Source of the DNA: Thermodesulfobacteriota bacterium
GTDB lineage: Bacteria; Desulfobacterota; GWC2-55-46; JADFVP01
DNA length: 64,000 nucleotides
Direction: 5' to 3'
NCBI GenBank assembly: GCA_046753845.1
Contig: JBHHUP010000003.1
Span: 6,236 to 70,235, forward strand
The notes beneath the pieces were generated by a model. The model worked only from the letters and a program-made list of their open reading frames with translations, made no database searches and was not told where the DNA came from. The translations under genes were made by a program, and so were the position numbers. The stretch's first letter is position 1. Every line of letters starts with the position of its first letter. Positions 29,916-48,857 of this stretch are shown piece by piece.

Positions 29916-30215
29916 TTATACCTGCATCCTCATAACCTCTTCATAGGCCGCGATGAGCTTGTTTCTCACCTGCACCATGAGGTTAAATGAAAGGTCCGCT
30001 TTTTCTATAGCTATCATAGTCTCATGAAGGTCTTTTACCTTGCCTGAGGCAAGGCCCTCTATGCTTTTATCGGCCTCGCCCTGAAGGGTATTAACCTTCT
30101 GCAGGCTATCCTTAAGCATGCTCTCAAAGCCGCCCTTCTCAGCGCCTGTCACCTTTGATTTAAGCGCGGCGGGATCCACCGCTGTATTAAGCCCACCCTT
30201 TATCGCATCTACCAT
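29916..30215 (-). CDS. fliE: flagellar hook-basal body protein FliE
   Basis: 99 aa. 'FESMLKDSLQKVNTLQGEADKSIE'. Confidence 0.8.
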   Translation of the reverse strand: MVDAIKGGLNTAVDPAALKSKVTGAEKGGFESMLKDSLQKVNTLQGEADKSIEGLASGKVKDLHETMIAIEKADLSFNLMVQVRNKLIAAYEEVMRMQV

Positions 30216-32780: not shown

Positions 32781-32808
32781 GTAAGACCTCCATATAAAAA
32801 AGGGGCTC

Positions 32809-33660
32809 TTATGATTCTACCCGTACTTCTTCCTGTGCCTCTTCAGACCACGGCAGAGATAACCTGAACTTCGTGCCCTCACCGGCTACGGATGAACATG
32901 TTATCTCGCCGCCATGAGCCGTGGCAATGGACGCCACTATGGCAAGGCCGAGACCTGTGCCGCTCGGGCGTGTGGTAAAAAAAGGATCAAAGACCCTGTC
33001 TTCTATGCTCTCATCCATGCCGCATCCCGTGTCCTCTATGGTAATCTCAAGTATTTTATCTTCTCTTACAGAGGTGGCTATTTTTATCGAGGCCCGATCC
33101 TTGCCGATGGCGTCAATGGCGTTAAAAAAGAGGTTCAGGAAGAGCTGACGAAGCAGCCCCGCGTCTGCGCGAGTCCTCGTGCTGCCGCTGTAGGAACGAA
33201 TTATCTCTACGTTATCACCGCAGCGTCCCGAGCATGCGGTCAGGGCATCTTCCAAGACGTCCCTTATCTCGATAAAATCCATATTAGGCTCGGGGCCGTT
33301 GGAGAATACAAGCATATCCGAGAGTATGCGGTCGAGGTTCCTCACACTGTCAAGGATATGTCCTGCGAGCTGCTGATTCTCGGTCTGACCCGATAGCTCA
33401 CGGCAGAGCAGGGTTGAAAATATCAGTATGGAGCCCATAGGGTTTCTAATCTCATGGGCAATCTTGGCGGCCATCTCTCCCATGGCCGCAAGGCGCGCCG
33501 TCCTCTGCTCGGCCTTATTCTTTCCGGAGAACTCTCGTTCAAGCTCACCGAATTTATCACCTAACATCTCGTACTGCCGCTCAAGCTTTCGCGAGGACTC
33601 CTCAAATTCCCTGAAGGCCCTGTTCAGGAAGGCCTTATCAATACTCTCGTTCATCTGCAT
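32809..33660 (-). CDS. soluble sensor histidine kinase (FlrB/FleS-like)
   Basis: H-box 'IAHEIRNPMGSI', HATPase 'DTGCGMD...GTGLGLAIV', no TM helix. The probable start is 'MQMNES' at 33660, two nt after the TPR gene stop; the ORF is called to 33705. Confidence 0.75.
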   Translation of the reverse strand: MQMNESIDKAFLNRAFREFEESSRKLERQYEMLGDKFGELEREFSGKNKAEQRTARLAAMGEMAAKIAHEIRNPMGSILIFSTLLCRELSGQTENQQLAGHILDSVRNLDRILSDMLVFSNGPEPNMDFIEIRDVLEDALTACSGRCGDNVEIIRSYSGSTRTRADAGLLRQLFLNLFFNAIDAIGKDRASIKIATSVREDKILEITIEDTGCGMDESIEDRVFDPFFTTRPSGTGLGLAIVASIATAHGGEITCSSVAGEGTKFRLSLPWSEEAQEEVRVES

Positions 33661-33662
33661 CT

Positions 33663-36083
33663 CTATTGTCCCCTGTTTTGCGCTATGGTAAGGGCCTCGG
33701 CCCACTCGCCGTAGGAGTTATATTTCTTCTTAAGTTCACTTACCGCCCGCACCGCCTCTTCGTCCATGCCGGCGCCTGCGTAGCTAAGTGATAAACGGTA
33801 CCTTGCCCATCTATCAGCGGCAAGAGAGAGATTATCCGCCATTGCAGCCGCCTCGGAGTAAGCCACCGCGGCGGCGGCGTATCCTCCGGAGATAAAGAGA
33901 GCGTCTCCGTACCCTGTCTTTGCCTCCAAAAGTCCTGCCCTGTCATTGATTTTTTTGTACTCCTTAATGGCCCGTGAATAAAGAGCCTTAGCCTCGCGCC
34001 ACCTGCCAAGCGCCTTATTGGCTCCGGCTCTCATGAGAAGACAATTAGCCCCCGTCCTGCCGCTGCCAAGACTTATCACCTCTTTATAATTACCCTTCAG
34101 GTACTGAGTCTCAATATAATACTCAGCCCAGAGAGATGCGTTCTCGGCTGCAGAGGAGATGCCCCTTGTGTCCTCAAGAAGCTTAGCCGCCGAGTTAAAG
34201 TCTCTCTGATCAAGATAGATACGTGCCAATGAGAGGTTTGCCTTCACTCTTATATCCCGGCGGCCGATTTTACCGGCTTTGCCAAGTGCCATAACCGCGT
34301 CAGGAGTAAGCCCTACTCTGTAGAGCGCTTCACCCACCCTCAGAAAATTTTCCGCCCTCTTGCCAAATGAGATCCAGTGGCCATAACGATAGTTAACGGT
34401 TACCACCTCAAGCCATTTTTTTTGCTTATACAGCTCCTTAAGCCAGTTATAAGCTGTCTTAGAGCGCAGCAGCCCCATCATCTCTGCGCCGGTGGCAAAA
34501 GGATAGAGAATAAAAAAATCGTCAAGGGCCTTCATGGCCTCGCCATGCTCCTTTAAGTCTTCAAGGACACCGGCAAGGGACAAGAGGGCTTCAGAGGATC
34601 CTATGGTCCTTGCGCCCGCCACCTCTCTATAGAGGTCTCTGGACTTTATAAGTATATGGTCGTCATGGGAGTAATAATCCGCAAGGGCGAGCATGGCCAT
34701 GGCAGCCCCCTCGCCATCGCCTCTCTTTTGAATTTTGGTATAACGCGTAACAGCCTCGTCAATATTACCGCCGGCCAGGATGGTGTCAGTCTCTCTCAAG
34801 GCAAAAAAAGACTCTATAAGGGACTGACCTCTAAAGCGTGTTCCAAGCCCCTTGAATATAATGCCCGCCCCCTTGTAATCACCACGCATCATCTTCAGGT
34901 CTGCAAGTCCCATGAGACTTAGAGGGTCTGTGAAATTATCAAGCTTTTCGTAATAAGACCATGCGGTCTTGAGCTCTCCTTTTAAAAAAAGCGAATCAGC
35001 AAGCCACGCAGCGGCTTCTTTAGAACCATCTTTACGGGCCTTTTTAAACCACTCTCTTGATTCGCTTACCCTGCCTGAAAAAAAGAGTACACGCCCTCTG
35101 CCAAGGGCGGCCGAGGCATGGAGCTTTTTCACACTCTTAGCCTCATAGGCCATGCCATAAAAGGCCATGGCCTCAGGATAGAGCCCCTCTCTCTCATAAG
35201 ACGAAGCAATAAGAAAGTGTACCATCGGTGTAAGGCCGTTCTCAGGGATACTTAAGAGGTCTGTCTCTACATAAGTATTAGATACGTCTTTTTTGATAAG
35301 CAAGATTATATCCTGAAGCGTCCTGGCACGAGGCATCTGCCCCTCTTCAGTAAGAGTTCTGAGATAACCCACGGCATCCATACCCTCTGTCCAACCCTTT
35401 AGGTGAGTTATTGGAAGATACTCACCTATCGTATCAAGGGCGGGGTCAGGGATATTACCGTAATAGTAATCCGTGAGGCGCTGCACCGTAGCCACTCTAT
35501 ACCTCCATCTCCAACCTTTATTGTAGAGAAGCGTATGTTTTCCCTCCTTGCTGTAAGGCTTAAGTGTAAACTTTTCTTCCTGGTTTTTTTTTGTCTTTGG
35601 CTTTACAAAATTAGATTTTCCGGCAAGGTGAGACTTCTTTACATTGGAGTGTGTGACCGTGGCGGCAGGCGCCGGTGTATGTGCTTTTTCGGGATACATA
35701 TCCACAACAATTCTGTATGGCTTATCCATAGTCCAGTACCTGACGCGAGCCATATTCTGCTTAAGTTCAACAAAAAAACTCGTAACAGGGGTATCACCAT
35801 CACTTTTCGTAGATACCTTTGTGAGTCTAAATAAATCCGTTCCGGCGTTACCGCCGCTAAATCCCTTGGACTCTATACCAAGAACTGATACTTCAATGGT
35901 CCTGCCGGTTTTTTTTGTACGATACCCGGCTTCGCTTCCGAGCTCTATCACAAGCCTGTGAAAATCTCTGTGCTCACCCGCCCTTGTTGAGAGAATATCT
36001 CCCTTGTCTCCGCCAGAGGCCGGCAAGAAGGTAGAGATAGATAAAAGAGGTATTATGATTATATACAGAATATACTTCAGCAC
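33663..36083 (-). CDS. secreted TPR-repeat protein with N-terminal AMIN-like domain
   Basis: 806 aa, GTG start with a GGAGGAG SD. Signal peptide 'MLKYILYIIIIPLLSISTFLPASG'. N-terminal 'FRLTKVSTKSDGDTPVTSFFVELKQNMARVRYWTMDKPYRIVVDM' resembles AMIN beta-domains. The remainder is TPR-like helical repeats (many A/Y/G-rich pairs). Confidence 0.6.
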   Translation of the reverse strand: MLKYILYIIIIPLLSISTFLPASGGDKGDILSTRAGEHRDFHRLVIELGSEAGYRTKKTGRTIEVSVLGIESKGFSGGNAGTDLFRLTKVSTKSDGDTPVTSFFVELKQNMARVRYWTMDKPYRIVVDMYPEKAHTPAPAATVTHSNVKKSHLAGKSNFVKPKTKKNQEEKFTLKPYSKEGKHTLLYNKGWRWRYRVATVQRLTDYYYGNIPDPALDTIGEYLPITHLKGWTEGMDAVGYLRTLTEEGQMPRARTLQDIILLIKKDVSNTYVETDLLSIPENGLTPMVHFLIASSYEREGLYPEAMAFYGMAYEAKSVKKLHASAALGRGRVLFFSGRVSESREWFKKARKDGSKEAAAWLADSLFLKGELKTAWSYYEKLDNFTDPLSLMGLADLKMMRGDYKGAGIIFKGLGTRFRGQSLIESFFALRETDTILAGGNIDEAVTRYTKIQKRGDGEGAAMAMLALADYYSHDDHILIKSRDLYREVAGARTIGSSEALLSLAGVLEDLKEHGEAMKALDDFFILYPFATGAEMMGLLRSKTAYNWLKELYKQKKWLEVVTVNYRYGHWISFGKRAENFLRVGEALYRVGLTPDAVMALGKAGKIGRRDIRVKANLSLARIYLDQRDFNSAAKLLEDTRGISSAAENASLWAEYYIETQYLKGNYKEVISLGSGRTGANCLLMRAGANKALGRWREAKALYSRAIKEYKKINDRAGLLEAKTGYGDALFISGGYAAAAVAYSEAAAMADNLSLAADRWARYRLSLSYAGAGMDEEAVRAVSELKKKYNSYGEWAEALTIAQNRGQ

Positions 36084-36109
36084 CGTGACTCCTCCATGTC
36101 ATAAGAAGA

Positions 36110-36127
36110 AGCAACAAACATGCCACG
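36110..36127 (-). promoter_or_regulatory. sigma-54 promoter (TGGCATG-N4-TTGCT) upstream of the TPR-kinase-regulator operon
   Basis: Minus-strand reading: CGTGGCATGTTTGTTGCT, 15-25 nt upstream of the GTG start. It is immediately downstream of the FleQ-like gene. Confidence 0.6.
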
Positions 36128-36297
36128 AGGAAAGCCCCGTGGCATCTATTGAGAAAAAGCCGTTTTTCTTATGGATAATTGGCCTGTTACGGCGATATGA
36201 AATGGAGATTTTACGGATTAGGCCGCAGTAAAGAGCCCGACGTCATAAGACAGACACCCACAATGTGTTGAGAGCTTGACCCTCAGGAGTTTACCCC

Positions 36298-37698
36298 TCA
36301 GGAATCGAGTCTCAGCCCTTTTCTCTTCATCTTTTCTATAAGGGTTGTCCTGTTGAGCTTCAAGAACTTGGCCGCGTTTTTCTTAACGCCATGCACCATG
36401 CCCAGGGCGTTGATAATCAGGTCCGTCTCGAACTTATCTACAACGGAATTAAAGTCAAGCCCCTCAGGGGAGATATAGACACGGTAATCAAAGCCCTTAA
36501 CGTGTTTTCTTGAGAGGAGAATCGTAGCCTTTTTGATGTTATCAGGGAGATCGTTTTCCACCACCTCGCCTTTTTCTTTAAGAACAACGATCCTCTCTAT
36601 AACATTTTCCATCTCACGTACATTACCGGGCCACTCATACTCCTCAAAGAGCCTCATAGCATTTGGAGACACTTTGGTTACGTCTTTATTCTTTGACTTC
36701 GAAATTGATTTGAGAAAATGTTTGATGAAGACAGGTATATCTTCTTTTCTCTCCCTTAAGGGGGGCATATCTATCGGGATTACATTAAGTCTGTAATAGA
36801 GATCCTCACGAAATTTTTTCTCCTTGATGGCCTTGGTGAGGTTCTGATTAGTGGCGGCCAGAACTCGGATGTCTACCTTAATAGTCTTTCTTCCGCCAAC
36901 CCTCTCGAACTCCTTTTCCTGCAGAACCCTCAGTATTTTGACTTGCAGGCCGGGGCTCATATCACCTATCTCATCAAGAAAGACCGTTCCGCCGTTGGCG
37001 GCCTCGAACCTGCCTATCTTCGTGGCTATAGCCCCTGTAAAGGCGCCTTTTTCGTGACCAAAGAGCTCACTCTCAAGGAGGTCTTCGGGGATGGCGCCGC
37101 AGTTTATGGGTACAAAGGGCTCACTGGACCTGTTGGACCCAAAATGCAGGGCCCGAGCCACTATCTCTTTACCTGTACCGGACTCGCCGAGGATAAGAAC
37201 AGTGGAGTCCGTATCTGCTACCTTGTTAATGATGCTTCTAACATGTTCTATCTTGTCGCTGGTGCCAAGGATACGGTCTATTAGCTTACGGCTTATGTTT
37301 CTTTTAAGCCTGAGATTTTCAGCAGTAAGCTCACTCACCTCAAAGGCCTTCTCAATGGTTACGAGGACCTCGACTTTATTGTAGGGTTTTTTGATATATG
37401 AAAAAGCTCCGGCGTTTAATGCATCCATGGCTTTTTTTATAGAGCCGTCGCTGGGAATAACAACGGCGCTCGTACTGGAGCTGGCACCTGTTATTGCACG
37501 GACGAACTCTATATCATTTATATCCGAGATGTTAAGATCGGCTATTACAACGTTGGGGGCGTTTCTTCTGATGTAGCTTATCGCGGCATCGGGTTTTTTT
37601 ATTGTATTAACAAAATAATCCTCGGCGCGAAAATTTTCTTTAAGGAACTTAGACATCGAGCCATCCTCTTCGACTAATAGAACATTCCTTTTCCTCAT
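36298..37698 (-). CDS. sigma-54-dependent transcriptional activator (FleQ/FlrA-like master regulator)
   Basis: 466 aa. Atypical N-terminal receiver-like domain. AAA+ 'GESGTGKE', 'GAFTGA', 'EWPGNVREMEN'. C-terminal HTH. Confidence 0.85.
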   Translation of the reverse strand: MRKRNVLLVEEDGSMSKFLKENFRAEDYFVNTIKKPDAAISYIRRNAPNVVIADLNISDINDIEFVRAITGASSSTSAVVIPSDGSIKKAMDALNAGAFSYIKKPYNKVEVLVTIEKAFEVSELTAENLRLKRNISRKLIDRILGTSDKIEHVRSIINKVADTDSTVLILGESGTGKEIVARALHFGSNRSSEPFVPINCGAIPEDLLESELFGHEKGAFTGAIATKIGRFEAANGGTVFLDEIGDMSPGLQVKILRVLQEKEFERVGGRKTIKVDIRVLAATNQNLTKAIKEKKFREDLYYRLNVIPIDMPPLRERKEDIPVFIKHFLKSISKSKNKDVTKVSPNAMRLFEEYEWPGNVREMENVIERIVVLKEKGEVVENDLPDNIKKATILLSRKHVKGFDYRVYISPEGLDFNSVVDKFETDLIINALGMVHGVKKNAAKFLKLNRTTLIEKMKRKGLRLDS

Positions 37699-38465: not shown

Positions 38466-39320
38466 ATGTTTCCCATAATAGGATTAGTCGTAGTTTTTGG
38501 TGCCATAATCGCAGGTTACACAATGGAGGAAGGTAACTTTTCTATTCTCATACAGCCAGCGGAGCTCATTACCATCGGCGGAGCGGCCATTGGCTCTCTT
38601 GTTGTCTCATGCCCGTCAAATCTCTTAAAAGACGTCTTTAAGGCCATCCCGGCCATCATAAAAGGGAGTACTCTCAAGAAGAGCCATTACATTTCACTAC
38701 TAACGCTATTATACGGTATTTTTTCAAAGATAAAAAAAGAGGGCCTGCTATCTGTAGAAAAAGATGTGGAGAGCCCAAAAACCAGTCCCCTCTTCAAAGG
38801 CTGTAAGGATATCATGAAAAATCACCATGCTCTGAATTTCCTATGCGATAACTTGAGGGTATTTATCATAGGCATTAAGCCTACGGAGATGGAAGATCTA
38901 ATGGATATTGAGATGGACAGTCACCACGAGGAGGCTGCTGTTACCCCCGGCATCATCACCAAGGTTGGCGATGCCCTTCCGGGATTCGGTATTGTTGCGG
39001 CGGTGCTCGGGATTGTCATTACCATGGGTAAGATGAGTGAAGGCCCAGAGGTCATCGGGCACAGCGTTGCCGCTGCACTTGTAGGGACATTTCTGGGAAT
39101 ACTTCTGAGTTACGGTGTAGTTGGTCCCCTTGGCAGCCACCTTGAGCACAAGAACAGAGAGGACGGCAAATACATAGAGACCATAAAGATAGCGCTTCTG
39201 GCCTTTGCCAAGGAGCTGCCGCCTCAGATGGCGGTAGAGGCCGGAAGAAGGACAATATTCAGCGGGGCGCGGCCATCCTTCAAGGATCTTGAGGACGCTA
39301 TCAAGAAAAACAAAAAATAA
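38466..39320 (+). CDS. motA: second flagellar stator protein MotA
   Basis: 284 aa, four TM helices, 'GFGIVAAVLGIVITMGKMSEGPEVIGHSVAAALVGTFLGILLSYGVVGP'. Confidence 0.85.
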   Translation: MFPIIGLVVVFGAIIAGYTMEEGNFSILIQPAELITIGGAAIGSLVVSCPSNLLKDVFKAIPAIIKGSTLKKSHYISLLTLLYGIFSKIKKEGLLSVEKDVESPKTSPLFKGCKDIMKNHHALNFLCDNLRVFIIGIKPTEMEDLMDIEMDSHHEEAAVTPGIITKVGDALPGFGIVAAVLGIVITMGKMSEGPEVIGHSVAAALVGTFLGILLSYGVVGPLGSHLEHKNREDGKYIETIKIALLAFAKELPPQMAVEAGRRTIFSGARPSFKDLEDAIKKNKK

Positions 39321-39332
39321 TAAGGTCTGGTA

Positions 39333-40136
39333 ATGGAAAGCAACGAGACTCAGCCCATAATAATTAAGAAGGTCATTAAAAAAGGGCATGGCGGCGGCCA
39401 CCACGGCGGAGCGTGGAAGGTTGCCTATGCCGACTTTGTAACGGCCATGATGGCTTTTTTCATGGTGCTCTGGCTTGTGGCCATGATGAGCATTGAGGCC
39501 AAGAAAGACATGGCCGAGTACTTCAGGAGTTATACTATATTTGAGGGTACCGAGGCCGGCGGCGGTAAAGGCGTCTCCATCATGAGCGGTAATCCTGTCC
39601 TGCTAAATAAGGCATCGGAGGTTACGACGCCCAAACCAAGCTCCAGCTCGTCAAGCAGCCTGAGTATTCTGCTTACAAAATCAATTAACACTCACCTGCG
39701 TGAATTAAAGGATCAGATACTTATATTTTCAACTAACGACGGGGTAAGACTTGAGCTTGTAGACCTTGATGACAGCCCAATGTTTGAGCGCGGCGGCGGA
39801 AGGCTTGTACAGAGGGGCGAGGAGGTCTTCAAGGTCCTCGCTGAATCTCTAAAGAAGATGCCTTACAAGATAGCCATCGAGGGACATACGGACAGTTTCA
39901 AGTTCGCCAATAAGGAGCATACGAACTGGGAGCTCGCCGCCGAGAGGGCCAACAGCGCAAGAAGGGAGCTTATAAAGAACGGCCTTGATGAGAAACGCAT
40001 CTCCAGGGTATCGAGTTTTGCAGACGTAGTACCCTTAAACGGAAGAGATACCTTTGACCCCATCAACAGGCGTGTAAGTATTCTTGTGCAGAAGAACAAA
40101 TACTCACCCGGGGCAGAAGACGATATCTTCAGGTAG
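39333..40136 (+). CDS. motB: second flagellar stator protein MotB (OmpA-like)
   Basis: 'WKVAYADFVTAMMAFFMVLWLV' and the OmpA motif 'IEGHTDSFKF...NWELAAERANSARREL...NRRVSILV'. Confidence 0.85.
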   Translation: MESNETQPIIIKKVIKKGHGGGHHGGAWKVAYADFVTAMMAFFMVLWLVAMMSIEAKKDMAEYFRSYTIFEGTEAGGGKGVSIMSGNPVLLNKASEVTTPKPSSSSSSSLSILLTKSINTHLRELKDQILIFSTNDGVRLELVDLDDSPMFERGGGRLVQRGEEVFKVLAESLKKMPYKIAIEGHTDSFKFANKEHTNWELAAERANSARRELIKNGLDEKRISRVSSFADVVPLNGRDTFDPINRRVSILVQKNKYSPGAEDDIFR

Positions 40137-40182: not shown

Positions 40183-40214
40183 GACCCCCAATGACGATCA
40201 TCGGGGGTCTTTTG
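40183..40214 (+). terminator. rho-independent terminator after motB2
   Basis: GACCCCCaatgacgatcatcGGGGGTC followed by TTTTG. Confidence 0.65.
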
Positions 40215-40312
40215 AAAATTTCTCTCTGAATTATTCAGGGAGAAAAAAGAAAAAGTGGAGACTTATTTTTCTTACAGTGATTAAAAATCACGGCACATCC
40301 CTGTAGGGCGCA

Positions 40313-40335
40313 AATGTCTGAATTAATCAGACATT
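40313..40335 (-). terminator. hairpin (10-bp arms AATGTCTGA..TCAGACATT) 3 nt after the PilZ gene stop; putative terminator of the flagellin operon
   Basis: Perfect inverted repeat aatgtctgaattaatcagacatt. On the minus strand it is followed by TTTG. The related palindrome CTGAATTATTCAG at 40225-40237 is nearby. Confidence 0.4.
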
Positions 40336-40337
40336 GC

Positions 40338-40919
40338 TTAGTGAGTACCGGCATCTTTCTTATTCGAACCGCTCCGTATCATCCTTCTCTGCCAGGCGAA
40401 GATATACCGCACAATTCTCTCCCTTACCCTGTCATCCATATCCACAAACTTTATCCCCACCTTCCATCCCCCCTCGATATTATCGCATACCCAGACGACC
40501 TCTCCTGTGACATCAAGGTCCTGGGTCTGATTAGGGAGAAATAATTTTATCGCAAGCTCATCGCCCTCACTGAACTGCTTATTGCATAGAATCTTAATAC
40601 CTCCGCCGCTTATGTTATCTATACGGGCCTCGGGTATCTCAAAACAGCGTTCGCTGGTGGTCTGCGTAAGGAGCTTTTTCAGCTTCTGGTTTATCTCAAT
40701 CAGAAGATCGTACATATCAGGGTCGTCTGAGGAGATGGCCTCCACCTTTCTTGCAAAGGACCTCAGCTCCCGGATATTCACGGCGGTATCTGTAATATTG
40801 ACACCTTGTTTTGCCACATAATACATGGGTATACTGTCATCTATTCTCACATACTCGCGATTATTAGAAATCATGCCAACCATGTACATCACCTCTTCTC
40901 TTTCATTGACATTATCCAT
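40338..40919 (-). CDS. PilZ-domain protein (YcgR/MotI-like candidate c-di-GMP flagellar effector)
   Basis: 193 aa. 'RIDNISGGGIKILCNKQFSEGDELAIKLFL...GEVVWV...GIKFVDMD' matches the PilZ (D/N)xSxGG barrel motif. No canonical RxxxR motif at the usual spacing. It is the last gene of the flagellin-fliD-fliS operon. Confidence 0.5.
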   Translation of the reverse strand: MDNVNEREEVMYMVGMISNNREYVRIDDSIPMYYVAKQGVNITDTAVNIRELRSFARKVEAISSDDPDMYDLLIEINQKLKKLLTQTTSERCFEIPEARIDNISGGGIKILCNKQFSEGDELAIKLFLPNQTQDLDVTGEVVWVCDNIEGGWKVGIKFVDMDDRVRERIVRYIFAWQRRMIRSGSNKKDAGTH

Positions 40920-40926
40920 CTTTAGA

Positions 40927-41271
40927 TTACCTTTGTAATTTCATGTTAACCATAGGCGAGGCGTAGGCCCTGTGCGCCCTGGTACAATGTAATACTTTCC
41001 GGAGTTCCCGGCGGGTTTCTTCAAGCGCGCCTTCCATAGAGACCCGGAGATCGCAGTCAAAGTTAAGTATCTCTTTTATAATATCTTGCTCCATATTTTT
41101 TTGCGCCTCCACCGCCTTTATCTTACTTATTCTGGAGATAATCTCATCGCGTTCAAGGATGGAACCCGCGAGCTCAGTGAGACGATTTTCAGAAAAAAGT
41201 CCTTTTTGGGCCCTGGCGATATTGAGCAGTCTCTTTAATAAATCAATTCTATCCGCGTTCTCAAGCTCCAT
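40927..41271 (-). CDS. small helical protein in the FliT position (possible flagellar chaperone)
   Basis: About 115 aa downstream of fliS, as fliT is in the Bacillus fliD-fliS-fliT arrangement. Probable start 'MELENADRIDLLKRLL'. No diagnostic motif. Confidence 0.3.
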   Translation of the reverse strand: MELENADRIDLLKRLLNIARAQKGLFSENRLTELAGSILERDEIISRISKIKAVEAQKNMEQDIIKEILNFDCDLRVSMEGALEETRRELRKVLHCTRAHRAYASPMVNMKLQR

Positions 41272-41674
41272 ATCCAGCCCCCGCTTCAATTGAAGGTTTT
41301 TCAGCCCCTGCGCCGGATGCCACAAGAGCGTCCCAGCCTTCTTTGACCTCGGCGAATAGCGCCGTAACACCCTCGATAATCCTTATAGAGTTCTTATTAT
41401 TTGCCTCGGCAAGCCTCGTAAGTGAGTGCAGATAGAGGTCCCGGAGGTTAATGGCCACCTCTTCACCCCTCTGCATATCAAGAGCGTTGTATAGCTCGCT
41501 TATAATGGCGATGGATCTGTTTATATACTCGCTGCGCTTCTCTATATCATTGTCTTTTATCGCCAGAGCCGCGAGCCTGTTGAACTTGATAACACCCTCG
41601 TAAAGCATTACAACAAGGCGAACCCTGTCAGATGTCATTACCTGAACCTTCTGATATGCCTTGATACCTTTCAT
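41261..41674 (-). CDS. fliS: flagellin-specific chaperone FliS
   Basis: 137 aa. 'RLVVMLYEGVIKFNRLA' and 'IISELYNALDMQRGEEVAINLRDLYLHSLTRLAEAN'. Confidence 0.85.
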   Translation of the reverse strand: MKGIKAYQKVQVMTSDRVRLVVMLYEGVIKFNRLAALAIKDNDIEKRSEYINRSIAIISELYNALDMQRGEEVAINLRDLYLHSLTRLAEANNKNSIRIIEGVTALFAEVKEGWDALVASGAGAEKPSIEAGAGYGA

Positions 41675-41686
41675 CCAACCCCCTTT

Positions 41687-43009
41687 TTAAAATCCGGCGC
41701 TCAAAAATTGTCCCTGTGCCTTAAGGCCGGCAAGGGTTCTCTCAAGGAGTGAGAAACGCACCCTGAGAGAGGCCTCATAATCGCTTATCTCCTGCTCCTT
41801 GGAGGTTATATGCGTAACAAGCGAAGCAATATTACTTCCAAGACCTTCCTGCTTTTTTGTAATCCTGCCGTCAACGCTGTCATTCATGGATTTTGTTAAA
41901 TCGTATACAAGTTTACCAAAACCCGAGGTGGAGGTTCCTTCTACAAAGAGATTCACTACGTCGCTATAGTTCGTGTTGAGGGCGTCTTTAAGCTTAGCAC
42001 TGTTAAGGGACATTACGCCATTAGTGTCTCTTGTAACACCGACATGGATGAGCCTGTTCATGGTATCTGGCAGTCCGCTTACGGCAGAGGTCATTATCCT
42101 GCTGAGTTCATCGGCGACGCTCCTTGCAATGGGATCTCCAAAGAGTGCGCCTCCTGTCTTTGTATCAATATCATACCGGTTATTTGATTTTATGTAGCTC
42201 ATCGCGGCATTGTACCTGTCTACAAAGGCCACGATCTTTTTTTCAATCTCACCTACATCACGCGATGTTGTCACGGTTACCGGAGCCGACGCCCCGGTAC
42301 TCTTCAGGTTAAGGGTTACGCCTGTAAGAACATCGCTTATGGTGTTGGAGGATCGCGTAACGGCAAGGCCGTCCACTGTAAGAGAGGCGTCCTGCGCAGC
42401 CTGCAGGGTGGTATTAAAGGCAAGGGTTGTATCGTTTTGATTAATAGTAATCTGATTAGCGGTACCTGTGGAATTAGCGGTAAGTACAAGCCGGTAGGAG
42501 GTGCCGTCATTTACCACCGACGCGGATACGCCTGCGTTAAGGGCGTTTATGGCGTCGCTTAACCCCGTAACGGTAGTGGCGGCGTCAACGGCTACGGACT
42601 GCATGGTTCCCGTACCCACGGTAAAATTAAAAGAACCCGCGGCTGATGCTACGACCGTAGTAGAGGCGGCCACACCATCGGCGGCCATCTTATGCGACTT
42701 TGCCAGAGCGTTTACGACTATTACCGAAGAACCGGCAAGTGCTGAAGTGCCGGCTGTGGCGTCGAGTATTGAGGTATCGCTGCTCGAAGAAGTAAATGAA
42801 TCAAAACCCGAAAGGGTCTTAAGGTCATTGGCAGCGGTCTCAAGGTCTGTGACACGGGATGCCAGGGTAGTATAGGAGGATTGAGTGTGTTCGAGCTTTT
42901 TCTTGTCGGCTATAAGCTGATCAACGGGCAGGCTCTTAACACTTACAAGCTGCTGAATAATAGAATCGTAATCAATACTGGAGACGAGTCCTGTAGCGGT
43001 TATGGCCAT
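41687..43009 (-). CDS. fliD: flagellar filament cap protein FliD
   Basis: 440 aa. N-terminal 'GLVSSIDYDSIIQQLVSVKSLPVDQLIADKKKLEH', C-terminal coiled coil. Confidence 0.8.
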   Translation of the reverse strand: MAITATGLVSSIDYDSIIQQLVSVKSLPVDQLIADKKKLEHTQSSYTTLASRVTDLETAANDLKTLSGFDSFTSSSSDTSILDATAGTSALAGSSVIVVNALAKSHKMAADGVAASTTVVASAAGSFNFTVGTGTMQSVAVDAATTVTGLSDAINALNAGVSASVVNDGTSYRLVLTANSTGTANQITINQNDTTLAFNTTLQAAQDASLTVDGLAVTRSSNTISDVLTGVTLNLKSTGASAPVTVTTSRDVGEIEKKIVAFVDRYNAAMSYIKSNNRYDIDTKTGGALFGDPIARSVADELSRIMTSAVSGLPDTMNRLIHVGVTRDTNGVMSLNSAKLKDALNTNYSDVVNLFVEGTSTSGFGKLVYDLTKSMNDSVDGRITKKQEGLGSNIASLVTHITSKEQEISDYEASLRVRFSLLERTLAGLKAQGQFLSAGF

Positions 43010-43152
43010 GGTATCCTCCCATTAACTAAAATAATCGGCCTCTCTCCCCTGTTATGCAGCTCAAATCAACTCTCACCCCCTCCCATAGGCGGGTGGTGAG
43101 GCGGCGCGGGCCACCTCACCCGTAGGGGGAAATGTTAATGCGGCCTGGAACT

Positions 43153-43995
43153 CTACCTTAAGAGCTGCAGCGCGCTCTGAGGCAGTGTATTAGCCTGAGC
43201 AAGTACGGAGATACCTGCCTGAACCATTATCTGGTTCTTTGTGAAAGTGGCCGTCTCCGAGGCAAAGTCAGCATCTCTTACCCTGGATTCAGCGGCCTGG
43301 AAGTTAGTGAATGTTACCTGAAGGTTCTGCAGCGCAACGTTAAGCCTGTTTGTTGTGGCGCCGTATACGGCCCTTGCGCTGTTGATTCTGTTAAGAGCGA
43401 CGCTTACGGCATCAAGGGCGTTAAGCGCGCCCGTTACGCTTGAGAGGGCTCCGGCGGAGAGACTGAGACCTACGTTACCGGTAGCGCCCGCGCTTGTCAG
43501 GGCGACAAGGCTTACACTGAGCTGGTTGTCAACTGAGTTCTTAAAACCAATAAACATGGTAAGCGAGGAGATGGAGCCGTTAAGGAGCTTGAAGCCTCCG
43601 AACTCCGTTGTACCGGCGATCCTGTCTATCTCGCTTATGAGTTTATCGTACTCATCCTTAAAGAACGTTCTTGCATTGGAATCAAGGGTTCCCTGTGCGG
43701 CGCTGGCAGCAAGCTCACCCATCCTTGTAATGATGCTTGTAACCTGCTCAGCGGCCTTATCACTTATTTCCATCGCGCTTACGCCGTCATTGACGTTCCG
43801 CATGGCGGCCTGAATCATCCTGGACTGACTGCGGAGCTGGTCGGCTCTTGCAAGTCCGGCGGCGTCATCAGCAGAGCTGTTTACCCTGTGACCCGATGAC
43901 AGCCTCTGAACGCTTATCTTCAACATCGCGTTCGAAGAGCTGATGTTCTGCTGCGCCAGTAGTGAAGCTATGTTGGTATTAATCGTTAAAGCCAT
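43153..43995 (-). CDS. fliC: flagellin (short D0-D1-only type, 280 aa)
   Basis: N-terminal 'INTNIASLLAQQNISSSNAMLKISVQRLSSGHRVNSSADDAAGLA' and C-terminal 'ESRVRDADFASETATFTKNQIMVQAGISVLAQANTLPQSALQLL'. Confidence 0.9.
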   Translation of the reverse strand: MALTINTNIASLLAQQNISSSNAMLKISVQRLSSGHRVNSSADDAAGLARADQLRSQSRMIQAAMRNVNDGVSAMEISDKAAEQVTSIITRMGELAASAAQGTLDSNARTFFKDEYDKLISEIDRIAGTTEFGGFKLLNGSISSLTMFIGFKNSVDNQLSVSLVALTSAGATGNVGLSLSAGALSSVTGALNALDAVSVALNRINSARAVYGATTNRLNVALQNLQVTFTNFQAAESRVRDADFASETATFTKNQIMVQAGISVLAQANTLPQSALQLLR

Positions 43996-44117: not shown

Positions 44118-44144
44118 TTATCGGCAGCAAGGTAAGAAACTTTA
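44118..44144 (-). promoter_or_regulatory. sigma-28 (FliA) promoter of the flagellin operon, perfect consensus
   Basis: Minus-strand reading: TAAAGTTT-cttaccttgct-GCCGATAA, about 120 nt upstream of the flagellin ATG and just after the stop of the upstream gene. Confidence 0.75.
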
Positions 44145-44152
44145 ATACCTGC

Positions 44153-44788
44153 TCACATATCGCCTCGGCTGAAGACCTTTTCCTCCATTTCTTTAAGGAG
44201 CGGTGTCAACTCATATTCGAGTATATCGGCAAGAAGCACATTATCGAGGGCCAGCCTCGCGTCCTTTAACGCAGACATATTCCGCAGTATATCCTCGTAA
44301 TAGGTTAGGGGATTTTCTTTAAATACATCTATGCTGTAAGCAAGGCCGCATTTATAGAGCGCGTCCATGGTCCTTACCATCTCTCCGGTGCTCTCAATAA
44401 TAGCGCCAAGGTAGTTATCTATCTCGCCTGAGCCGCGTCTGAGCGCGCCTGTCATATTCATCGCGAGCTCGCAGATAAAGGTAATGTACTCGCCAACAGT
44501 GTATATACCCTGCAGTACAACGTGGTCAATGCCGCTCGTAAAGAGCCGTAACTCGCCATAGCTTTTAAGGGGCTTATTAATAGCAGAGGCGTCCTTCCAC
44601 AAAGCGCCCTCGTTTCTGCCGTCAACCCATAACTCCATAATAAAACGCCTTAAGGGTTTTAAATCAGACTCCACGGCATCAACAAGATCGCCTACGGTAG
44701 AGCTTACTTTTACGCCGCTAAAATCCAGCCGGGCATCGTCAAGGTATATTTCCGTAATCATAGGAGACTCCTTTCTTGCTTTTTTCAC
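44153..44788 (-). CDS. hypothetical protein translationally coupled (ATGA) to the Maf-family gene
   Basis: 211 aa. No recognizable motif. 4-nt overlap with the upstream maf-like gene. Confidence 0.4.
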   Translation of the reverse strand: MKKARKESPMITEIYLDDARLDFSGVKVSSTVGDLVDAVESDLKPLRRFIMELWVDGRNEGALWKDASAINKPLKSYGELRLFTSGIDHVVLQGIYTVGEYITFICELAMNMTGALRRGSGEIDNYLGAIIESTGEMVRTMDALYKCGLAYSIDVFKENPLTYYEDILRNMSALKDARLALDNVLLADILEYELTPLLKEMEEKVFSRGDM

Positions 44789-46701
44789 TTTTTATTAACA
44801 GCAACCGGCATCTCTGCTTGCCCCTCCAAATTCAAGCACCGAACCTTTTTAAGGGCATCTGATATCTTGGGCAGGAAAAGAAGACACATCTTACGTACCT
44901 CCTTGTATGTGCGTATAGTACGATCGATATCCTTTCTGAACTGGTCTTCTGTTGAGCTCTCCTCATCCTCTTTCAGGTACTCCTTAAGGTCGTATGTATA
45001 CTCAACAAGGGCCTCCCAGAGAAAAGAGACCTCGCAGACAGCCTTAAAGAGCCTGCGTTCCTTTCTCCTTATCCTGTCAAGTTTACCGCTAAGCTCGGTA
45101 CGAAGCCCCCTGGATATAAAATCAACCTTAAGTACGCCGGCCCCCTTGATTATCTCCCCGGAGAGTTTTTCAACAATTCTTACCCTGTCTCGAAGTTTTG
45201 TAAAAGACTCTATAAGCCCTCTTATGTCTACATCAGGGGGCGTGCTCTCGCTTTGATGAAGTATCTTGTCCACGTCTACGGGTTTTTGCAGGTGCCTTCT
45301 GATAACCTCTTTGAGGGTTGTATGCTCCATGCCCTTTATAAAGGCCCCGCCCTCAGTGGCGTTGTATACACGGATTGAGGGAAACTGCTCTTTAAGCAGC
45401 GCAGTATAACGCTCAAACCACTGATGAAAGGTTACCCAGTCGTATTTGCTCGCTACGGGTTCACCGTTAAAACCTTGCAGCCACAGCAGCTTATGCGTAA
45501 TAGTACGCCGGTGACCTGATATATAATGCTCTTTTACACTGACAAGCCCCTTATCCTTGTCAATGGATATCCTCTGCTTATCGTAAACGCCTCCGCCAAC
45601 GTGGGTCATGTTTTTATCAAAGGCAAGATCCTGGCCGAGAAATATTATAGGGTCGCAGCCGAACATTACGCCCATATCAAACATGGCCGTAGTTACGGAG
45701 CCGCCGATTGATACAAAGGACTTACTCCCCCAGAGGCGCGCCTGCTGAAGGCTCAAGGCGATAAAGGGGCTGTAGAAGATAAATTTACCATGGGCTTCGC
45801 GCTTGAACATCTCCGGATGCGAGACCTCTGAGAGTATAAGGCGTATCTTTTTATCGGCCTCACCGCCGTCAAAGTATTCATCAAGATTAACTTTTTCTCC
45901 TGATATTACCGCGTGCGGCACGATACCGTAGCTTAGCAGGCTCTTATAAGCGGTTACGGCGGAGACTATAAAGGCCTTGTCTTTTAGCTCCGCAAGAAGT
46001 GATACGTTTTTTCGAAGCGATGGCCCGGCACCTACGATAATCATGGGAACGCCCTTGAATTGGTCACGCATAACATCTACAGAGGGATAGACAGGAAAGG
46101 CGTCGAGGTTGGCGAAATAATTCATCAGCCAGTCCAGCCTTGAGTCTATCTCTGTCTTTATGCCAACCATCTGCGAGGTATGGGCGTTCTGTATCTTAAC
46201 GAGAAATTCCTTAAGCTCACCCTGGAAGGTCAACCTGTAAGGCATGGTGTGGTAGCCGATGATACTGTCAACCCCTTCTGTAAACTGCTGAACCCGTGCG
46301 ATAAAGGGCCCTATATAATTTGCAAGGTAGACCCTCTGTCCGGAGAATTCTTTACTGAGGTCTATCTTCATAAGCACAGCCTTTAGTATCTCCATAGAGG
46401 GCTCATAGATAAAAATTTTCTGTGTGCCGCGCTTTAAGAGGGTAGACATAAGGTAACCGCATCCGAGTCCGAATAAGGCCACGGAGTCGGGTTTCTTGCC
46501 GAGTATCTCTTCGGCCTGCTCGTCAGCCTCCTTCCACGGCCCGTACTGGCTGTTAAAGAGGCGTCCCTTGTAGGAGAGGACAAACTCCTTATTCTTACCT
46601 CTGTAGATCTTGGCTACGTCCTTATTAAAGGCGCGCAGTCTCTCGGCGAGGATGCTGTCCTGTTTTGCTATGGCGGCGCAGTTAGTCTCGAAAATACTCA
46701 T
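44785..46701 (-). CDS. maf: motility-associated factor (Maf/DUF115 family) putative flagellin nonulosonic-acid glycosyltransferase
   Basis: 638 aa. The central 'GVPMIIVGAGPSL...NATEGGAF' MptE/DUF115-like core is typical of Campylobacter/Helicobacter/Aeromonas Maf proteins. Adjacent to flagellin and the pse genes. Confidence 0.65.
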   Translation of the reverse strand: MSIFETNCAAIAKQDSILAERLRAFNKDVAKIYRGKNKEFVLSYKGRLFNSQYGPWKEADEQAEEILGKKPDSVALFGLGCGYLMSTLLKRGTQKIFIYEPSMEILKAVLMKIDLSKEFSGQRVYLANYIGPFIARVQQFTEGVDSIIGYHTMPYRLTFQGELKEFLVKIQNAHTSQMVGIKTEIDSRLDWLMNYFANLDAFPVYPSVDVMRDQFKGVPMIIVGAGPSLRKNVSLLAELKDKAFIVSAVTAYKSLLSYGIVPHAVISGEKVNLDEYFDGGEADKKIRLILSEVSHPEMFKREAHGKFIFYSPFIALSLQQARLWGSKSFVSIGGSVTTAMFDMGVMFGCDPIIFLGQDLAFDKNMTHVGGGVYDKQRISIDKDKGLVSVKEHYISGHRRTITHKLLWLQGFNGEPVASKYDWVTFHQWFERYTALLKEQFPSIRVYNATEGGAFIKGMEHTTLKEVIRRHLQKPVDVDKILHQSESTPPDVDIRGLIESFTKLRDRVRIVEKLSGEIIKGAGVLKVDFISRGLRTELSGKLDRIRRKERRLFKAVCEVSFLWEALVEYTYDLKEYLKEDEESSTEDQFRKDIDRTIRTYKEVRKMCLLFLPKISDALKKVRCLNLEGQAEMPVAVNKK

Positions 46702-46732
46702 ATCAATACCCCGTACTTTTTACCATGGCAGG

Positions 46733-48823
46733 TTACATTACCTTCTCTGCCATGACCTTGAATCTTACCTCGTTAATTCCTCGCCATACCCAATAGGCCG
46801 TATCATCAACCTCGCCAGCGGAGTGATAGAGGCGCAGAAAAAACTCATTACCGGGTTCGCTGTAATTTATCATGGGCACGGTGTGCACAATGTTGCGCTC
46901 CGAAGATATGCATAGGGTCTTTTTCCTGTCCCCAAAGCTTACCCATCCTTCCGTGGCCCCAAGACAGCTTGTGCCCGATATGGCCGGGCTTACGGGCTTC
47001 GCGTGAGAGAGACTGCGACCGCTTAAGCTGAACCTCTCAGGCCCCGTACCGCCGTTAATGGTCTCGAACCACAGGTCTTTCTTATCAAAGGCCCCGGGCA
47101 TAAGCGTAAATATACCGAGGCGCAGGCTTGAAGCCGCCAGTCCCCGTGCCGTCAGCCTGTAGCTTAGAGTAAATTCATCCCCGCCCCGGGGGATTTGATA
47201 CTCCTTTACAAGCCTGCCTATGGACGTATCAATTACCGCGCTTATACGCACCCCGGCCTCGTCTTCAATCACAGTTGGCACGACAGGCACAAGGTCCGTA
47301 GTCTTTGTGCCGGCTCGGTCCGTATGTATGAGATGCCCTGAAAAAAAATCGGCCCCGAGCTCAATGGAATCAAAGTAACCGTGCCCGAGGGTGCCGAGCA
47401 GAGGCCGCGCTGAGACATGGGGAAAAAGAACCGAGGCAAGGGCAAGGCCCCTGTCTTTCAAAAACTCAATCTCAACCCTGCCGGTGGAGATGCGAAGGCG
47501 CCTTGCGTCCTCGTAGACCCTGACCTTGCTCCTGCCCGCCAGAGCCCTTGCCCCCTTTACAGGTAAAGAGAAGGCCACGCCCCCTGTGGTGCCCGTAGCG
47601 CGGAGCGCCCCTTCCTGTACAATGGATTCACTTCGCGCGAGATCCATGGAACCTTCAAGAGTAAGGTTTTTCCCTCTCTCCAGAAGACCGGCCTTGGAGA
47701 TTAGAGACCTGGTCTCAAAACTCAGCCACCCCAGTCGTTCGTTTAAATAAGCGAGCTTATCATCAGTGGTGTTTGTACGAAAATCACTGCCCCAGACCTC
47801 ACATAGCATCTCACACAGCTCACCCCTCCCCCGTAGCGCGCCCCCTGCCTCAAGGGCCAAAAGCTTCTTATATACACCGAGACACCGCGCGTTAAGATGG
47901 GCGCTGTCCCTACCCGTGACGCTCCACCTTAGCGGGTTGTACCGCTCCTGCTTCTTGCATACAATGGGCGTCTCCGTTGATTCAAGCCTTATGGGCGGGG
48001 CGTCGGAGCTACCCTTGAATTGACGTAGAATTTCCTCTGGCCTTAAAAGGGCAAATCTCTTCTCCATTATCAGCCCCTTTAAGAGCTCTCTTATCCTCTT
48101 AAAATCCCCCCGCGGCATCCGGCCGAGCCCCGGCCTGTAATCAAAGACCTCGGCGTCATTGGAATAGGCCACAAAGGCCCTCTCCTGCTCCTTATTATAA
48201 TGAGAGAGCAGATACTCTCTGTATTCTCTGGTAGATAGCTCGCCGCTGACGCATCGGCCAAACTTCTGAAAGGCTATGGAGTTTGACCATAGCAGCCCCA
48301 TGGACTCGCCGGGAAGCCTTCCGGCGGCCCTCTGCGGCGAGTACATAATCTCCGGCGCATACTCGTTATGACGGGAGCAGTTATTCCAGTCCATGATTAA
48401 GGCATCATAACCGGCCTCTTTATATAACCCCACAAGCCCGGCAGAAAAGGTCTGCTCATTGACAAGGGCTACTGATGGGCTAAACCCGAGAATTTCCTCG
48501 TAATACTTATTGCCAAGCTCAAGGTTCCATCTGTTAACCCCGGCCGGAATTAGAGGCATAATTGACTGAGCGTAACCTGAGCCGATAAAACTCATCCTGC
48601 CCGACCTTAATAACTCCTTAAGGCCTCGGGTAAAGGCCGGGTCTATGCTTTGAACCTCGCGAAGGGTCCATGCAGGCATCTCAATGGCGATAGGAATCCC
48701 CTCCTCGGCCATACGAAGTAAGGGCCAATAGCAGTTTTTGATAACAACAGGAAACTCCTCTCTCGCTATGAGAGAAAAAGCCAGATTGCAGTGAAATAAT
48801 ACGTAAAGGTTAAGCCTTGCCAT
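46733..48823 (-). CDS. large protein with a GH57-like N-terminal domain, function unknown
   Basis: 696 aa. The N-terminal 'LNLYVLFHCNLAFS' block resembles the GH57 / (beta/alpha)7 glycoside-hydrolase-like fold. The C-terminal half is uncharacterized. Co-operonic with maf. Confidence 0.35.
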   Translation of the reverse strand: MARLNLYVLFHCNLAFSLIAREEFPVVIKNCYWPLLRMAEEGIPIAIEMPAWTLREVQSIDPAFTRGLKELLRSGRMSFIGSGYAQSIMPLIPAGVNRWNLELGNKYYEEILGFSPSVALVNEQTFSAGLVGLYKEAGYDALIMDWNNCSRHNEYAPEIMYSPQRAAGRLPGESMGLLWSNSIAFQKFGRCVSGELSTREYREYLLSHYNKEQERAFVAYSNDAEVFDYRPGLGRMPRGDFKRIRELLKGLIMEKRFALLRPEEILRQFKGSSDAPPIRLESTETPIVCKKQERYNPLRWSVTGRDSAHLNARCLGVYKKLLALEAGGALRGRGELCEMLCEVWGSDFRTNTTDDKLAYLNERLGWLSFETRSLISKAGLLERGKNLTLEGSMDLARSESIVQEGALRATGTTGGVAFSLPVKGARALAGRSKVRVYEDARRLRISTGRVEIEFLKDRGLALASVLFPHVSARPLLGTLGHGYFDSIELGADFFSGHLIHTDRAGTKTTDLVPVVPTVIEDEAGVRISAVIDTSIGRLVKEYQIPRGGDEFTLSYRLTARGLAASSLRLGIFTLMPGAFDKKDLWFETINGGTGPERFSLSGRSLSHAKPVSPAISGTSCLGATEGWVSFGDRKKTLCISSERNIVHTVPMINYSEPGNEFFLRLYHSAGEVDDTAYWVWRGINEVRFKVMAEKVM

Positions 48824-48857
48824 AACGGGTTATCCCTTCTTTTGTCAAAAAAATTCT

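Follow-up and report, generated by a model that had tools for sequence, protein, structure and literature searches.

A 64,000-nucleotide stretch of DNA from a Thermodesulfobacteriota bacterium (assembly GCA_046753845.1, contig JBHHUP010000003.1, positions 6,236 to 70,235; hereafter the window) was analysed with respect to a PilZ-domain protein encoded at the end of a flagellar gene cluster. Its gene, a minus-strand open reading frame (ORF) at 40338..40919 with an ATG start, is real and encodes 193 amino acids. As judged from the sequence and from a structural model, the product belongs to the tetrameric PilZ (tPilZ) family and is a protein in which the motifs for binding cyclic di-GMP (c-di-GMP) are intact. 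Because its flagellar context is conserved in every relative examined, it is reasonable to regard it as a flagellar c-di-GMP effector of the late class. By analogy to characterized tPilZ proteins we also propose, with moderate confidence, that it may be a tetrameric adaptor that binds c-di-GMP, is produced late during flagellar assembly and acts on the motor, the long-type MotA stator being its most likely partner.

The PilZ domain and its c-di-GMP-binding motifs

The following features of the gene are referred to below:

40338..40919, minus strand: predicted tPilZ gene, a stand-alone tetramer-type PilZ domain of 193 residues (ORF, Pfam, AlphaFold, Foldseek, family profile)
40845..40859, minus strand: codons of the RxxxR motif, R21-E-Y-V-R25, CGC GAG TAT GTG AGA (read from the sequence)
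40599..40616, minus strand: codons of the [D/N]hSxxG motif, N102-I-S-G-G-G107, AAC ATA AGC GGC GGA GGT
40629..40811, minus strand: predicted insert between beta1 and beta2, residues 37-97, with helices alpha2 (49-60) and alpha3 (67-88) (model, profile alignments, conservation)
40350..40433, minus strand: predicted basic C-terminal helix alpha4, residues 163-190 (model, composition, conservation)

The Pfam PilZ family (PF07238) matched the protein with an E-value of 7.2e-17 (62 bits against a cutoff of 22.5), and the barrel was modelled by AlphaFold with a predicted local distance difference test score (pLDDT) above 90, in agreement with the PilZ barrel proposed by the first-pass annotation. 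The Pfam match spans only residues 97-175, corresponding to profile positions 24-102 of 102, and the part of the profile that bears RxxxR remains unmatched; the coverage is so limited because a two-helix insert splits the PilZ domain. The second motif lies in the stretch RIDNISGGGIKI, residues 99-110 of the protein. No second domain accompanies the PilZ domain, and the gene is present in a single copy within the window.

The RxxxR motif had previously been reported as missing, and an altered or absent dependence on c-di-GMP had been suggested on that account. The former holds for the usual position: 76 residues separate R25 from N102, as compared with the canonical 20-30 within one uninterrupted domain. 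The motif is nevertheless present in the protein as R21-E-Y-V-R25. Sixteen close homologs were retrieved from 5.8 billion proteins, 12 with 66-100% identity and four with 33-38%, and R21, E22, V24, R25, S104, G105, G106 and G107 are invariant in all of them. When 1.84 billion cluster representatives were searched exhaustively with the profile, 5,983 proteins were retrieved at E<=1e-3, of which 668 reached E<=1e-10. A total of 165 sequences (150 listed matches and the earlier homologs) were inspected, 121 of which match the profile from end to end. In most of these, R-x-[YF]-[FV]-R is found, and N-[ILV]-S-x-x-G comes 75-100 residues after it; among the full-length matches listed, about 46 are proteins of ~250 residues with the same split motifs. 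An alignment was then made of 72 split-motif relatives, 19-74% identical to the window protein, with a median distance of 78 residues between the motifs. R21 and R25 are found in 72/72, S104 in 68/72, G107 in 71/72, and N, D or S at position 102 in 68/72.

These data indicate, at the level of sequence, that RxxxR has been displaced rather than lost and that it is strongly constrained; both c-di-GMP motifs are intact and constitute the most conserved positions of the family. Since both are intact, the sequence offers no basis for an altered c-di-GMP dependence. Another RxxxR string, R53-S-F-A-R57, located 45 residues before the second motif, was considered as a functional motif and rejected, as it is unconserved even in close relatives.

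An intact but distant RxxxR also bears on the type of PilZ protein. The first-pass annotation suggested a YcgR/MotI-type two-domain (PilZN-PilZ) brake from which RxxxR was lost, c-di-GMP dependence being altered or gone with it. MotI does rank second among the structural matches, for the barrel it is the PDB entry that matches best by sequence, and a brake-like outcome would still be possible. The PilZN/YcgR-type Pfam families (YcgR, YcgR_2 and xPilZ), however, gave no match even at E<=10, and RxxxR is invariant. In the model, residues 1-96 belong to a single split PilZ domain, of which they form alpha1, RxxxR together with beta1, and the alpha2/alpha3 insert. Because a PilZN domain is lacking the protein does not belong to the YcgR/MotI type, and we consider this explanation very improbable.

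Fold and relation to tetrameric PilZ proteins

The tPilZ class was defined structurally in 2011, with XCC6012 of Xanthomonas as its founding member, and was widened in 2019/2020 to more than 3,000 proteins, including some from delta-Proteobacteria and Nitrospirae; many of these keep both motifs (10.1101/814665). For the window protein, the 16 close sequences led to an AlphaFold model too poor to be used (pLDDT 49), while the 72 diverse sequences gave a usable one. Its mean pLDDT is 80, with values exceeding 90 in the barrel and lying at 50-80 in the insert. Its elements are alpha1 (6-18), beta1 (25-36), alpha2 (49-60), alpha3 (67-88), beta2 (98-104), beta3 (107-112), beta4 (121-126), beta5 (135-146), beta6 (152-159) and alpha4 (163-190). 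Pfam and the model agree in placing a six-stranded PilZ barrel and a long C-terminal helix in the protein. The region of alpha4 is basic, with 9 K/R within residues 163-193, and R166, Y172, Q177, R178 and R182 in it are kept across the family.

When the model was compared with the PDB by Foldseek, the highest-ranking structure was that of XCC6012 (3RQA_A, E=6e-6), aligned over its full length in 178 columns; canonical PilZ domains aligned essentially to the barrel. When PDB sequences were searched with the protein alone or with the profile of the close homologs, matches were obtained at the level of the barrel only, to PilZ proteins of type IV pili and, for the profile, weakly to MotI. The 72-sequence profile matched XCC6012 (3PH1/3RQA) with E=7.4e-5, profile positions 49-185 aligning with residues 55-190 of the chain and hence including alpha2 and alpha3. 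In this alignment the family's 'inaKLdlil' falls on 'MDAKLDLIL' of XCC6012, the site of the KLD interlock. The canonical PilZ domain of MotI aligned with the same profile in two pieces, positions 7-35 with MotI 96-124 and positions 94-177 with MotI 125-212. As the two pieces are contiguous in MotI, the insert is mapped precisely to profile positions 36-93.

The pattern of alpha3 is consistent with a coiled coil. Its a/d core would be formed by M69, L73, I76, L80 and L83, with K79 set at heptad position g, as is K77 in XCC6012. L73, I76, L80 and L83 are invariant in 16/16 close homologs, and the equivalent columns are hydrophobic in 72/72 relatives. At the interlock, published as [DENH]x[KR]h[DEN] (10.1101/814665), the window protein reads N77-Q-K79-L80-K81, the sister clade NQKLN and the family consensus NxKLD; the latter two conform to the published pattern, and the window protein fits 3/4 specified positions, the last being K81 rather than D, E or N. 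According to the authors who described FlgX, a tPilZ protein of Campylobacter jejuni, the interlock motif should not serve as a criterion of membership.

XCC6012 (also XC_2249, and FlgZ or PilZX4 in X. oryzae; PDB 3RQA, 3PH1) has the same topology as the model, alpha1/beta1/alpha2/alpha3/beta2-beta6/alpha4, and both are stand-alone proteins of ~190 residues that end in a basic helix. When structurally aligned, they are ~13-17% identical. Whereas the window protein has both motifs, RxxxR is missing from XCC6012, as is the D/N of the second motif, and the structural papers describe XCC6012 as non-binding. The positions of the two genes coincide: XCC6012 is encoded in fliC-fliD-fliS-fliT(X)-tPilZ under sigma-28 control. 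The downstream neighbours differ, Xanthomonas having a LuxR-type response regulator, rpoN2 and fleQ and the window a convergent motB-motA. Specifically, the order in all xanthomonads examined is fliC, fliD, fliS, unknown, pilZ (XC_2249), LuxR-type response regulator, rpoN, response regulator, fleQ. In X. oryzae, fliS-fliTX-flgZ was demonstrated by reverse transcription PCR to be one operon, dependent on FliA, in which flgZ is the atypical PilZ gene and its start overlaps the fliT gene by 1 bp. A direct precedent for the operon position in the window has thus been published from another phylum. Motility and virulence are both reduced when XC_2249 is lost.

FlgX is located under the MotA pentamer, and the stator ring requires it; the function of FlgX depends on basic alpha4 residues, and alpha4 contacts MotA (PMC11725899). 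As known from its description, FlgX shares with the window protein the tPilZ fold, a stand-alone length of 160-190 residues, a location beside flagellar genes and a basic alpha4. The two differ in that FlgX lacks the c-di-GMP motifs and binds no ligand, lacks alpha1 and the interlock motif, occurs in Campylobacterota only and is encoded in the order ubiA-flgX-flgW, as compared with fliT and motB as the neighbours in the window. The reverse applies to PA2989 of P. aeruginosa, a tPilZ protein with an intact RxxxR and a Ser at the [D/N] position of the second motif, which is reported to bind c-di-GMP (10.1101/814665). Such motif-bearing tPilZ proteins resemble the window protein in their RxxxR, their near-intact second motif and their stand-alone, single-copy nature (10.1101/814665); no flagellar linkage is described in the literature consulted on them. 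Single-domain motor effectors of another kind are also found in flagellar clusters. MotL of Shewanella putrefaciens (144 residues) is a stand-alone PilZ protein encoded next to the motAB of one of two flagellar systems, and both MotL and FilZ of Pseudoalteromonas are canonical single PilZ proteins without the two-helix insert. YcgR, MotI and Pseudomonas FlgZ carry an N-terminal PilZN domain, unlike the window protein, and YcgR and MotI contact MotA. All five are receptors that sense c-di-GMP through a PilZ domain and modulate the flagellar motor, but in none of them would a tetramer built on an alpha3 coiled coil be expected.

If extended to the window protein, the two non-binding precedents would make it a structural part of the motor that works independently of c-di-GMP, as FlgX does, with its motifs kept for folding. 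FlgX and XCC6012 both work without canonical c-di-GMP binding, and the role of XC_2249 in motility did not require it (PMC3749722). This explanation must contend with the invariance of R21 and R25 in 72/72 relatives and the near-invariance of S104 and G107, with the rapid loss of the motifs in non-binding tPilZ lineages, even inside one genus (10.1101/814665), and with the pairing of tPilZ with a c-di-GMP phosphodiesterase gene in related lineages. We regard it as unlikely.

Genetic context and expression

The genes and signals that surround the tPilZ gene in the window are as follows:

38466..39320 and 39333..40136, plus strand: long-type motA (284 residues; MotA_N/MotA_ExbB) and motB (267 residues; MotB_plug/OmpA)
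40183..40209, no single strand: bidirectional intrinsic terminator hairpin common to the tPilZ operon and motAB, 12-bp stem with 7 GC pairs
40927..41271, minus strand: FliT-like gene, 114 residues from ATG 41271 (Pfam FliT weak, E=0.0026, below the gathering score)
41261..41674, minus strand: fliS, flagellin export chaperone (Pfam FliS E=1.4e-32; TIGR00208 above cutoff)
41687..43009, minus strand: fliD, filament cap (Pfam FliD_N and FliD_C)
43095..43120, minus strand: 11-bp GC-rich hairpin without a U-tract in the 143-nucleotide fliC-fliD spacer (RNA fold)
43153..43995, minus strand: flagellin gene (Pfam Flagellin_N and Flagellin_C)
44118..44144, minus strand: sigma-28 (FliA)-type promoter upstream of flagellin, TAAAGTTT-N11-GCCGATAA, a perfect consensus

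As the first-pass annotation stated, the tPilZ gene is the terminal one after flagellin, fliD, fliS and the fliT-like gene, all on the minus strand, and faces motB across a terminator. The hairpin of this terminator is flanked by T-runs: after the stem, the minus strand reads ATTTTTTATC and the plus strand TTTTGAAAAT. The tPilZ gene closes an operon-like unit in which fliD and fliS are separated by 12 nucleotides, fliS and fliT overlap, and fliT and tPilZ are 7 nucleotides apart. The FliT assignment is stronger in some relatives, where the gene at the orthologous position is annotated as FliT. A mechanical call of this ORF from GTG 41370 (40927..41370) would overlap fliS by 110 nucleotides; the ATG at 41271 leaves an 11-nucleotide overlap and a length that fits the 115-116-residue FliT genes of relatives. 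The long-type MotA/MotB pair, convergent with tPilZ, scores 346.7 bits with TIGR03818, above the cutoff. A second, divergent motAB pair is located at 29..1500 (minus strand) and encodes a short-type MotA and MotB of 258 and 232 residues (short motA at 724..1500), the two stator pairs being 27% identical; its presence justifies the label motA2B2 previously given to the long-type pair.

The late-class flagellar setting was likewise supported by the sigma-28 promoter, the adjoining stator pair and the context kept in relatives. The promoter at 44118..44144 is the only zero-mismatch sigma-28 site in the window, where three sites with at most one mismatch were found and 0.3 would be expected by chance, and it is kept at the same place in the loci of nine relatives. 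The two one-mismatch sites, 8846..8872 (TAAAGTTT-N11-GTCGATAA) and 30067..30093 (TAAT-N15-GCCGATAA), both on the minus strand, may mark other late flagellar promoters. Co-expression of tPilZ with flagellin, as suggested earlier, is plausible in so far as read-through from the flagellin promoter into fliD-fliS-fliT-tPilZ is plausible from the sequence; it is qualified by the GC-rich hairpin between fliC and fliD. The terminator scan does not call that hairpin, which could terminate transcription in part or else stabilise the mRNA. Ahead of fliD, no separate promoter was convincing; a candidate second sigma-28 promoter there (GCCGATTA, ~23 nucleotides 5' of the ATG) was rejected, as it has no TAAA at the right spacing. 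The 128 nucleotides between the tPilZ stop codon and the shared terminator (40210..40337) contain several short palindromes, e.g. ATGTCTGA-n5-TCAGACAT at 40315..40335. No Rfam RNA family was found in the whole window, including this 3' region.

The window's clade is represented by metagenome-assembled genomes of uncultured Thermodesulfobacteriota ('Deltaproteobacteria') only. In close relatives (68-90% identity), 7/7 reference-genome loci have the order Maf, unknown, FliC, FliD, FliS, FliT, tPilZ, converging on MotB-MotA, which is followed by a sigma-54 response regulator; in those relatives whose gene calls were inspected, there is an 8-nucleotide overlap between fliT and the start of tPilZ. 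The sister clade (36-42% identity; ~20 loci) displays the order unknown, FliC, FlaG, FliD, FliS, FliT, small ORF, response regulator, response regulator with an HD-GYP domain (RR-HD-GYP), tPilZ, TilS, the start of tPilZ often overlapping the end of the HD-GYP gene. At 20-29% identity, one distant relative has tPilZ after FlaG-FliD-FliS-x-response regulator. A metagenome subclade in the same range has, on one strand, FlgM, FlgN, FlgK, FlgL, small ORF, response regulator, RR-HD-GYP, tPilZ, HisKA, MotA, MotB, an order that holds in every locus long enough to show it. The MotA of this subclade is 47-53% identical to the window's long-type MotA, compared with 21-26% to the short-type MotA, and in related lineages tPilZ is linked with the long type only.

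The same neighbourhoods can be read in favour of a role in filament assembly or late export, in which tPilZ would be a c-di-GMP sensor translationally coupled to FliT, binding FliT, FliS, FliD or the export gate and tuning the export of flagellin or cap to the c-di-GMP level, and thereby filament length or number. The most widely conserved neighbours of tPilZ are fliD-fliS-fliT or flgK-flgL, the order fliS-fliT-tPilZ is common to Gammaproteobacteria and Thermodesulfobacteriota, and the fliT-tPilZ start overlap found in relatives has its counterpart in the proven fliS-fliTX-flgZ operon of Xanthomonas oryzae. On the other hand, export chaperones are not known as targets of any PilZ protein, the response regulator and HD-GYP genes of the distant subclade stand between the chaperone genes and tPilZ, which there adjoins motAB, and FlgX, the sole tPilZ protein with a located flagellar position, sits under the stator. 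We hold a role in export to be possible, though considerably less probable than one on the motor.

A recurrent signalling module is evident in the related loci:

L001, 5523..8008; L043, 1567..5228; also L046, L047 and L050: response regulator/HD-GYP/tPilZ module

It is composed of a conserved ORF of 62-66 residues (no Pfam match), a single-domain response regulator, a response regulator with a GAF-like region and HD-GYP, and tPilZ; in one subclade a HisKA-only protein of 262 residues is added, followed by MotAB. The tPilZ gene directly follows the RR-HD-GYP phosphodiesterase gene, often overlapping it, in more than 30 related loci. The sequences suggest that the window's clade has lost all of this module except tPilZ. 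HD-GYP, GGDEF and EAL domains gave no match in the window, where receiver domains alone matched, and no c-di-GMP cyclase or phosphodiesterase is encoded there. A 'GGDEF' string in the ORF 46733..48823 was rejected as a mark of a diguanylate cyclase, since this ORF encodes a GH57-family protein (696 residues) and the string is fortuitous.

The module raises an additional scenario, in which tPilZ is an adaptor in an HD-GYP/GGDEF signalling complex that drives another machine, such as the type IV pilus ATPases, and its flagellar location only times its expression. XC_2249, at the same operon position, is reported to be in complex with RpfG (a response regulator with HD-GYP) and GGDEF proteins and to contact PilT and PilU (PMC3749722), and the immediate succession of RR-HD-GYP and tPilZ in so many related loci is in line with such a complex. 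The window's clade, however, has no HD-GYP gene beside tPilZ, no pilus genes were seen in the loci examined, and all conserved neighbours are flagellar. This scenario appears to us somewhat less probable still than a role in export.

Other genes around this cluster were noted. Between Maf and flagellin, with a 4-nucleotide overlap with the Maf stop, lies a conserved ORF of 211 residues (44153..44788, minus strand), found at the same position in both clades with 34-87% identity; it has no Pfam match in the window, and relatives give only weak or faint matches to DUF8042 and TP0873_N. The genes upstream of flagellin at 44785..51688 (minus strand) encode a Maf/MptE-like protein (638 residues), the GH57-family protein, a B12-binding radical SAM protein and an ATP-grasp ligase, and probably constitute a flagellin-modification island. 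Adjoining motAB, the minus-strand region 31434..37698 encodes two sigma-54-dependent response regulators (448 and 466 residues), a HisKA/HATPase kinase and an 806-residue TPR protein. This arrangement is kept in close relatives, and these genes are probably the upper tier of flagellar gene regulation.

Proposed action on the motor

We infer the tetramer formation of the window protein, its c-di-GMP binding, its flagellar target and the sign of its effect, be it that of a brake or of a stabiliser. By analogy with XCC6012 and FlgX, four alpha3 helices would assemble into a parallel coiled coil, giving a homotetramer with the barrels at its corners and alpha2 and alpha4 exposed; here the heptad pattern and homology are what suggest a homotetramer. 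As both motifs are kept, c-di-GMP is expected to be bound through them, unlike in XCC6012 and FlgX, an expectation to which motif conservation and the example of PA2989 both point. The protein would be made mainly late in flagellar assembly, together with fliD-fliS-fliT under sigma-28, because it is encoded with the last flagellar genes downstream of the sigma-28 flagellin promoter. The tetramer could then report the c-di-GMP level to the finished motor through protein-protein contacts of alpha4. The most probable partner would be the neighbouring long-type MotA5B2 stator, which is ranked first because of the FlgX precedent and the recurrent tPilZ-(HisKA)-MotAB linkage.

Several observations weigh against this proposal. 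With regard to the fold, the superposition on 3RQA is loose (template modelling score 0.47-0.51, root-mean-square deviation ~8 Å), the insert is modelled at moderate confidence only, and the interlock ends in K81. The window protein also has D101 (D/E101 in its clade) where 66/72 relatives have a hydrophobic residue. PF16823, the Pfam tPilZ family centred on XCC6012, misses the window protein, gave no match at E<=10 in any of the 16 close homologs, and detects only 3/72 of the wider relatives (best E 0.0011). We take PF16823 as a narrow model rather than as evidence against membership, because profile and fold searches do reach XCC6012, and FlgX is likewise missed by sequence methods. With regard to the partner, the adjacency to motAB is convergent in the window, so that the genes are not co-transcribed, and the sister clade does not have it; among the neighbours of tPilZ, those conserved most widely are filament, hook-associated and chaperone genes rather than stator genes. 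The lack of c-di-GMP-metabolizing genes in the window, and the reported action of the Xanthomonas tPilZ at the orthologous position on type IV pilus ATPases (PMC3749722), are to be counted here as well.

The proposal can be taken a step further. The tPilZ lineage may represent a c-di-GMP-gated FlgX, a tetrameric cytoplasmic scaffold which docks under the long-type MotA5B2 and not under the short-type stator of the same cell, in one ligand state only; c-di-GMP, set locally by the neighbouring RR-HD-GYP of related lineages, would then pick which stator set powers the flagellum. This extension, drawn from analogy and gene linkage, is speculative and, taken on its own, we deem it unlikely. If true, it would make the link between tPilZ and the stator ancestral and widespread, and not an invention of the Campylobacterota.

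The apparently missing RxxxR is explained by the tPilZ class as described in 2011 and 2020 and does not point to a new, c-di-GMP-independent kind of PilZ protein. The gene adds a member to this known family, at a position already documented for the founding member. Its wider interest lies in the call by the FlgX authors for tPilZ proteins across phyla to be examined for stator association: the window and ~45 related loci address their question of how tPilZ proteins relate to the motor and its 5:2 stator in other phyla. In uncultured Thermodesulfobacteriota and related lineages, a motif-intact tPilZ is a fixed part of the late flagellar clusters, and in many cases an RR-HD-GYP phosphodiesterase and a certain type of MotAB accompany it. 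The protein is therefore a candidate for a c-di-GMP-responsive tetrameric motor component, a counterpart of FlgX that is open to testing.

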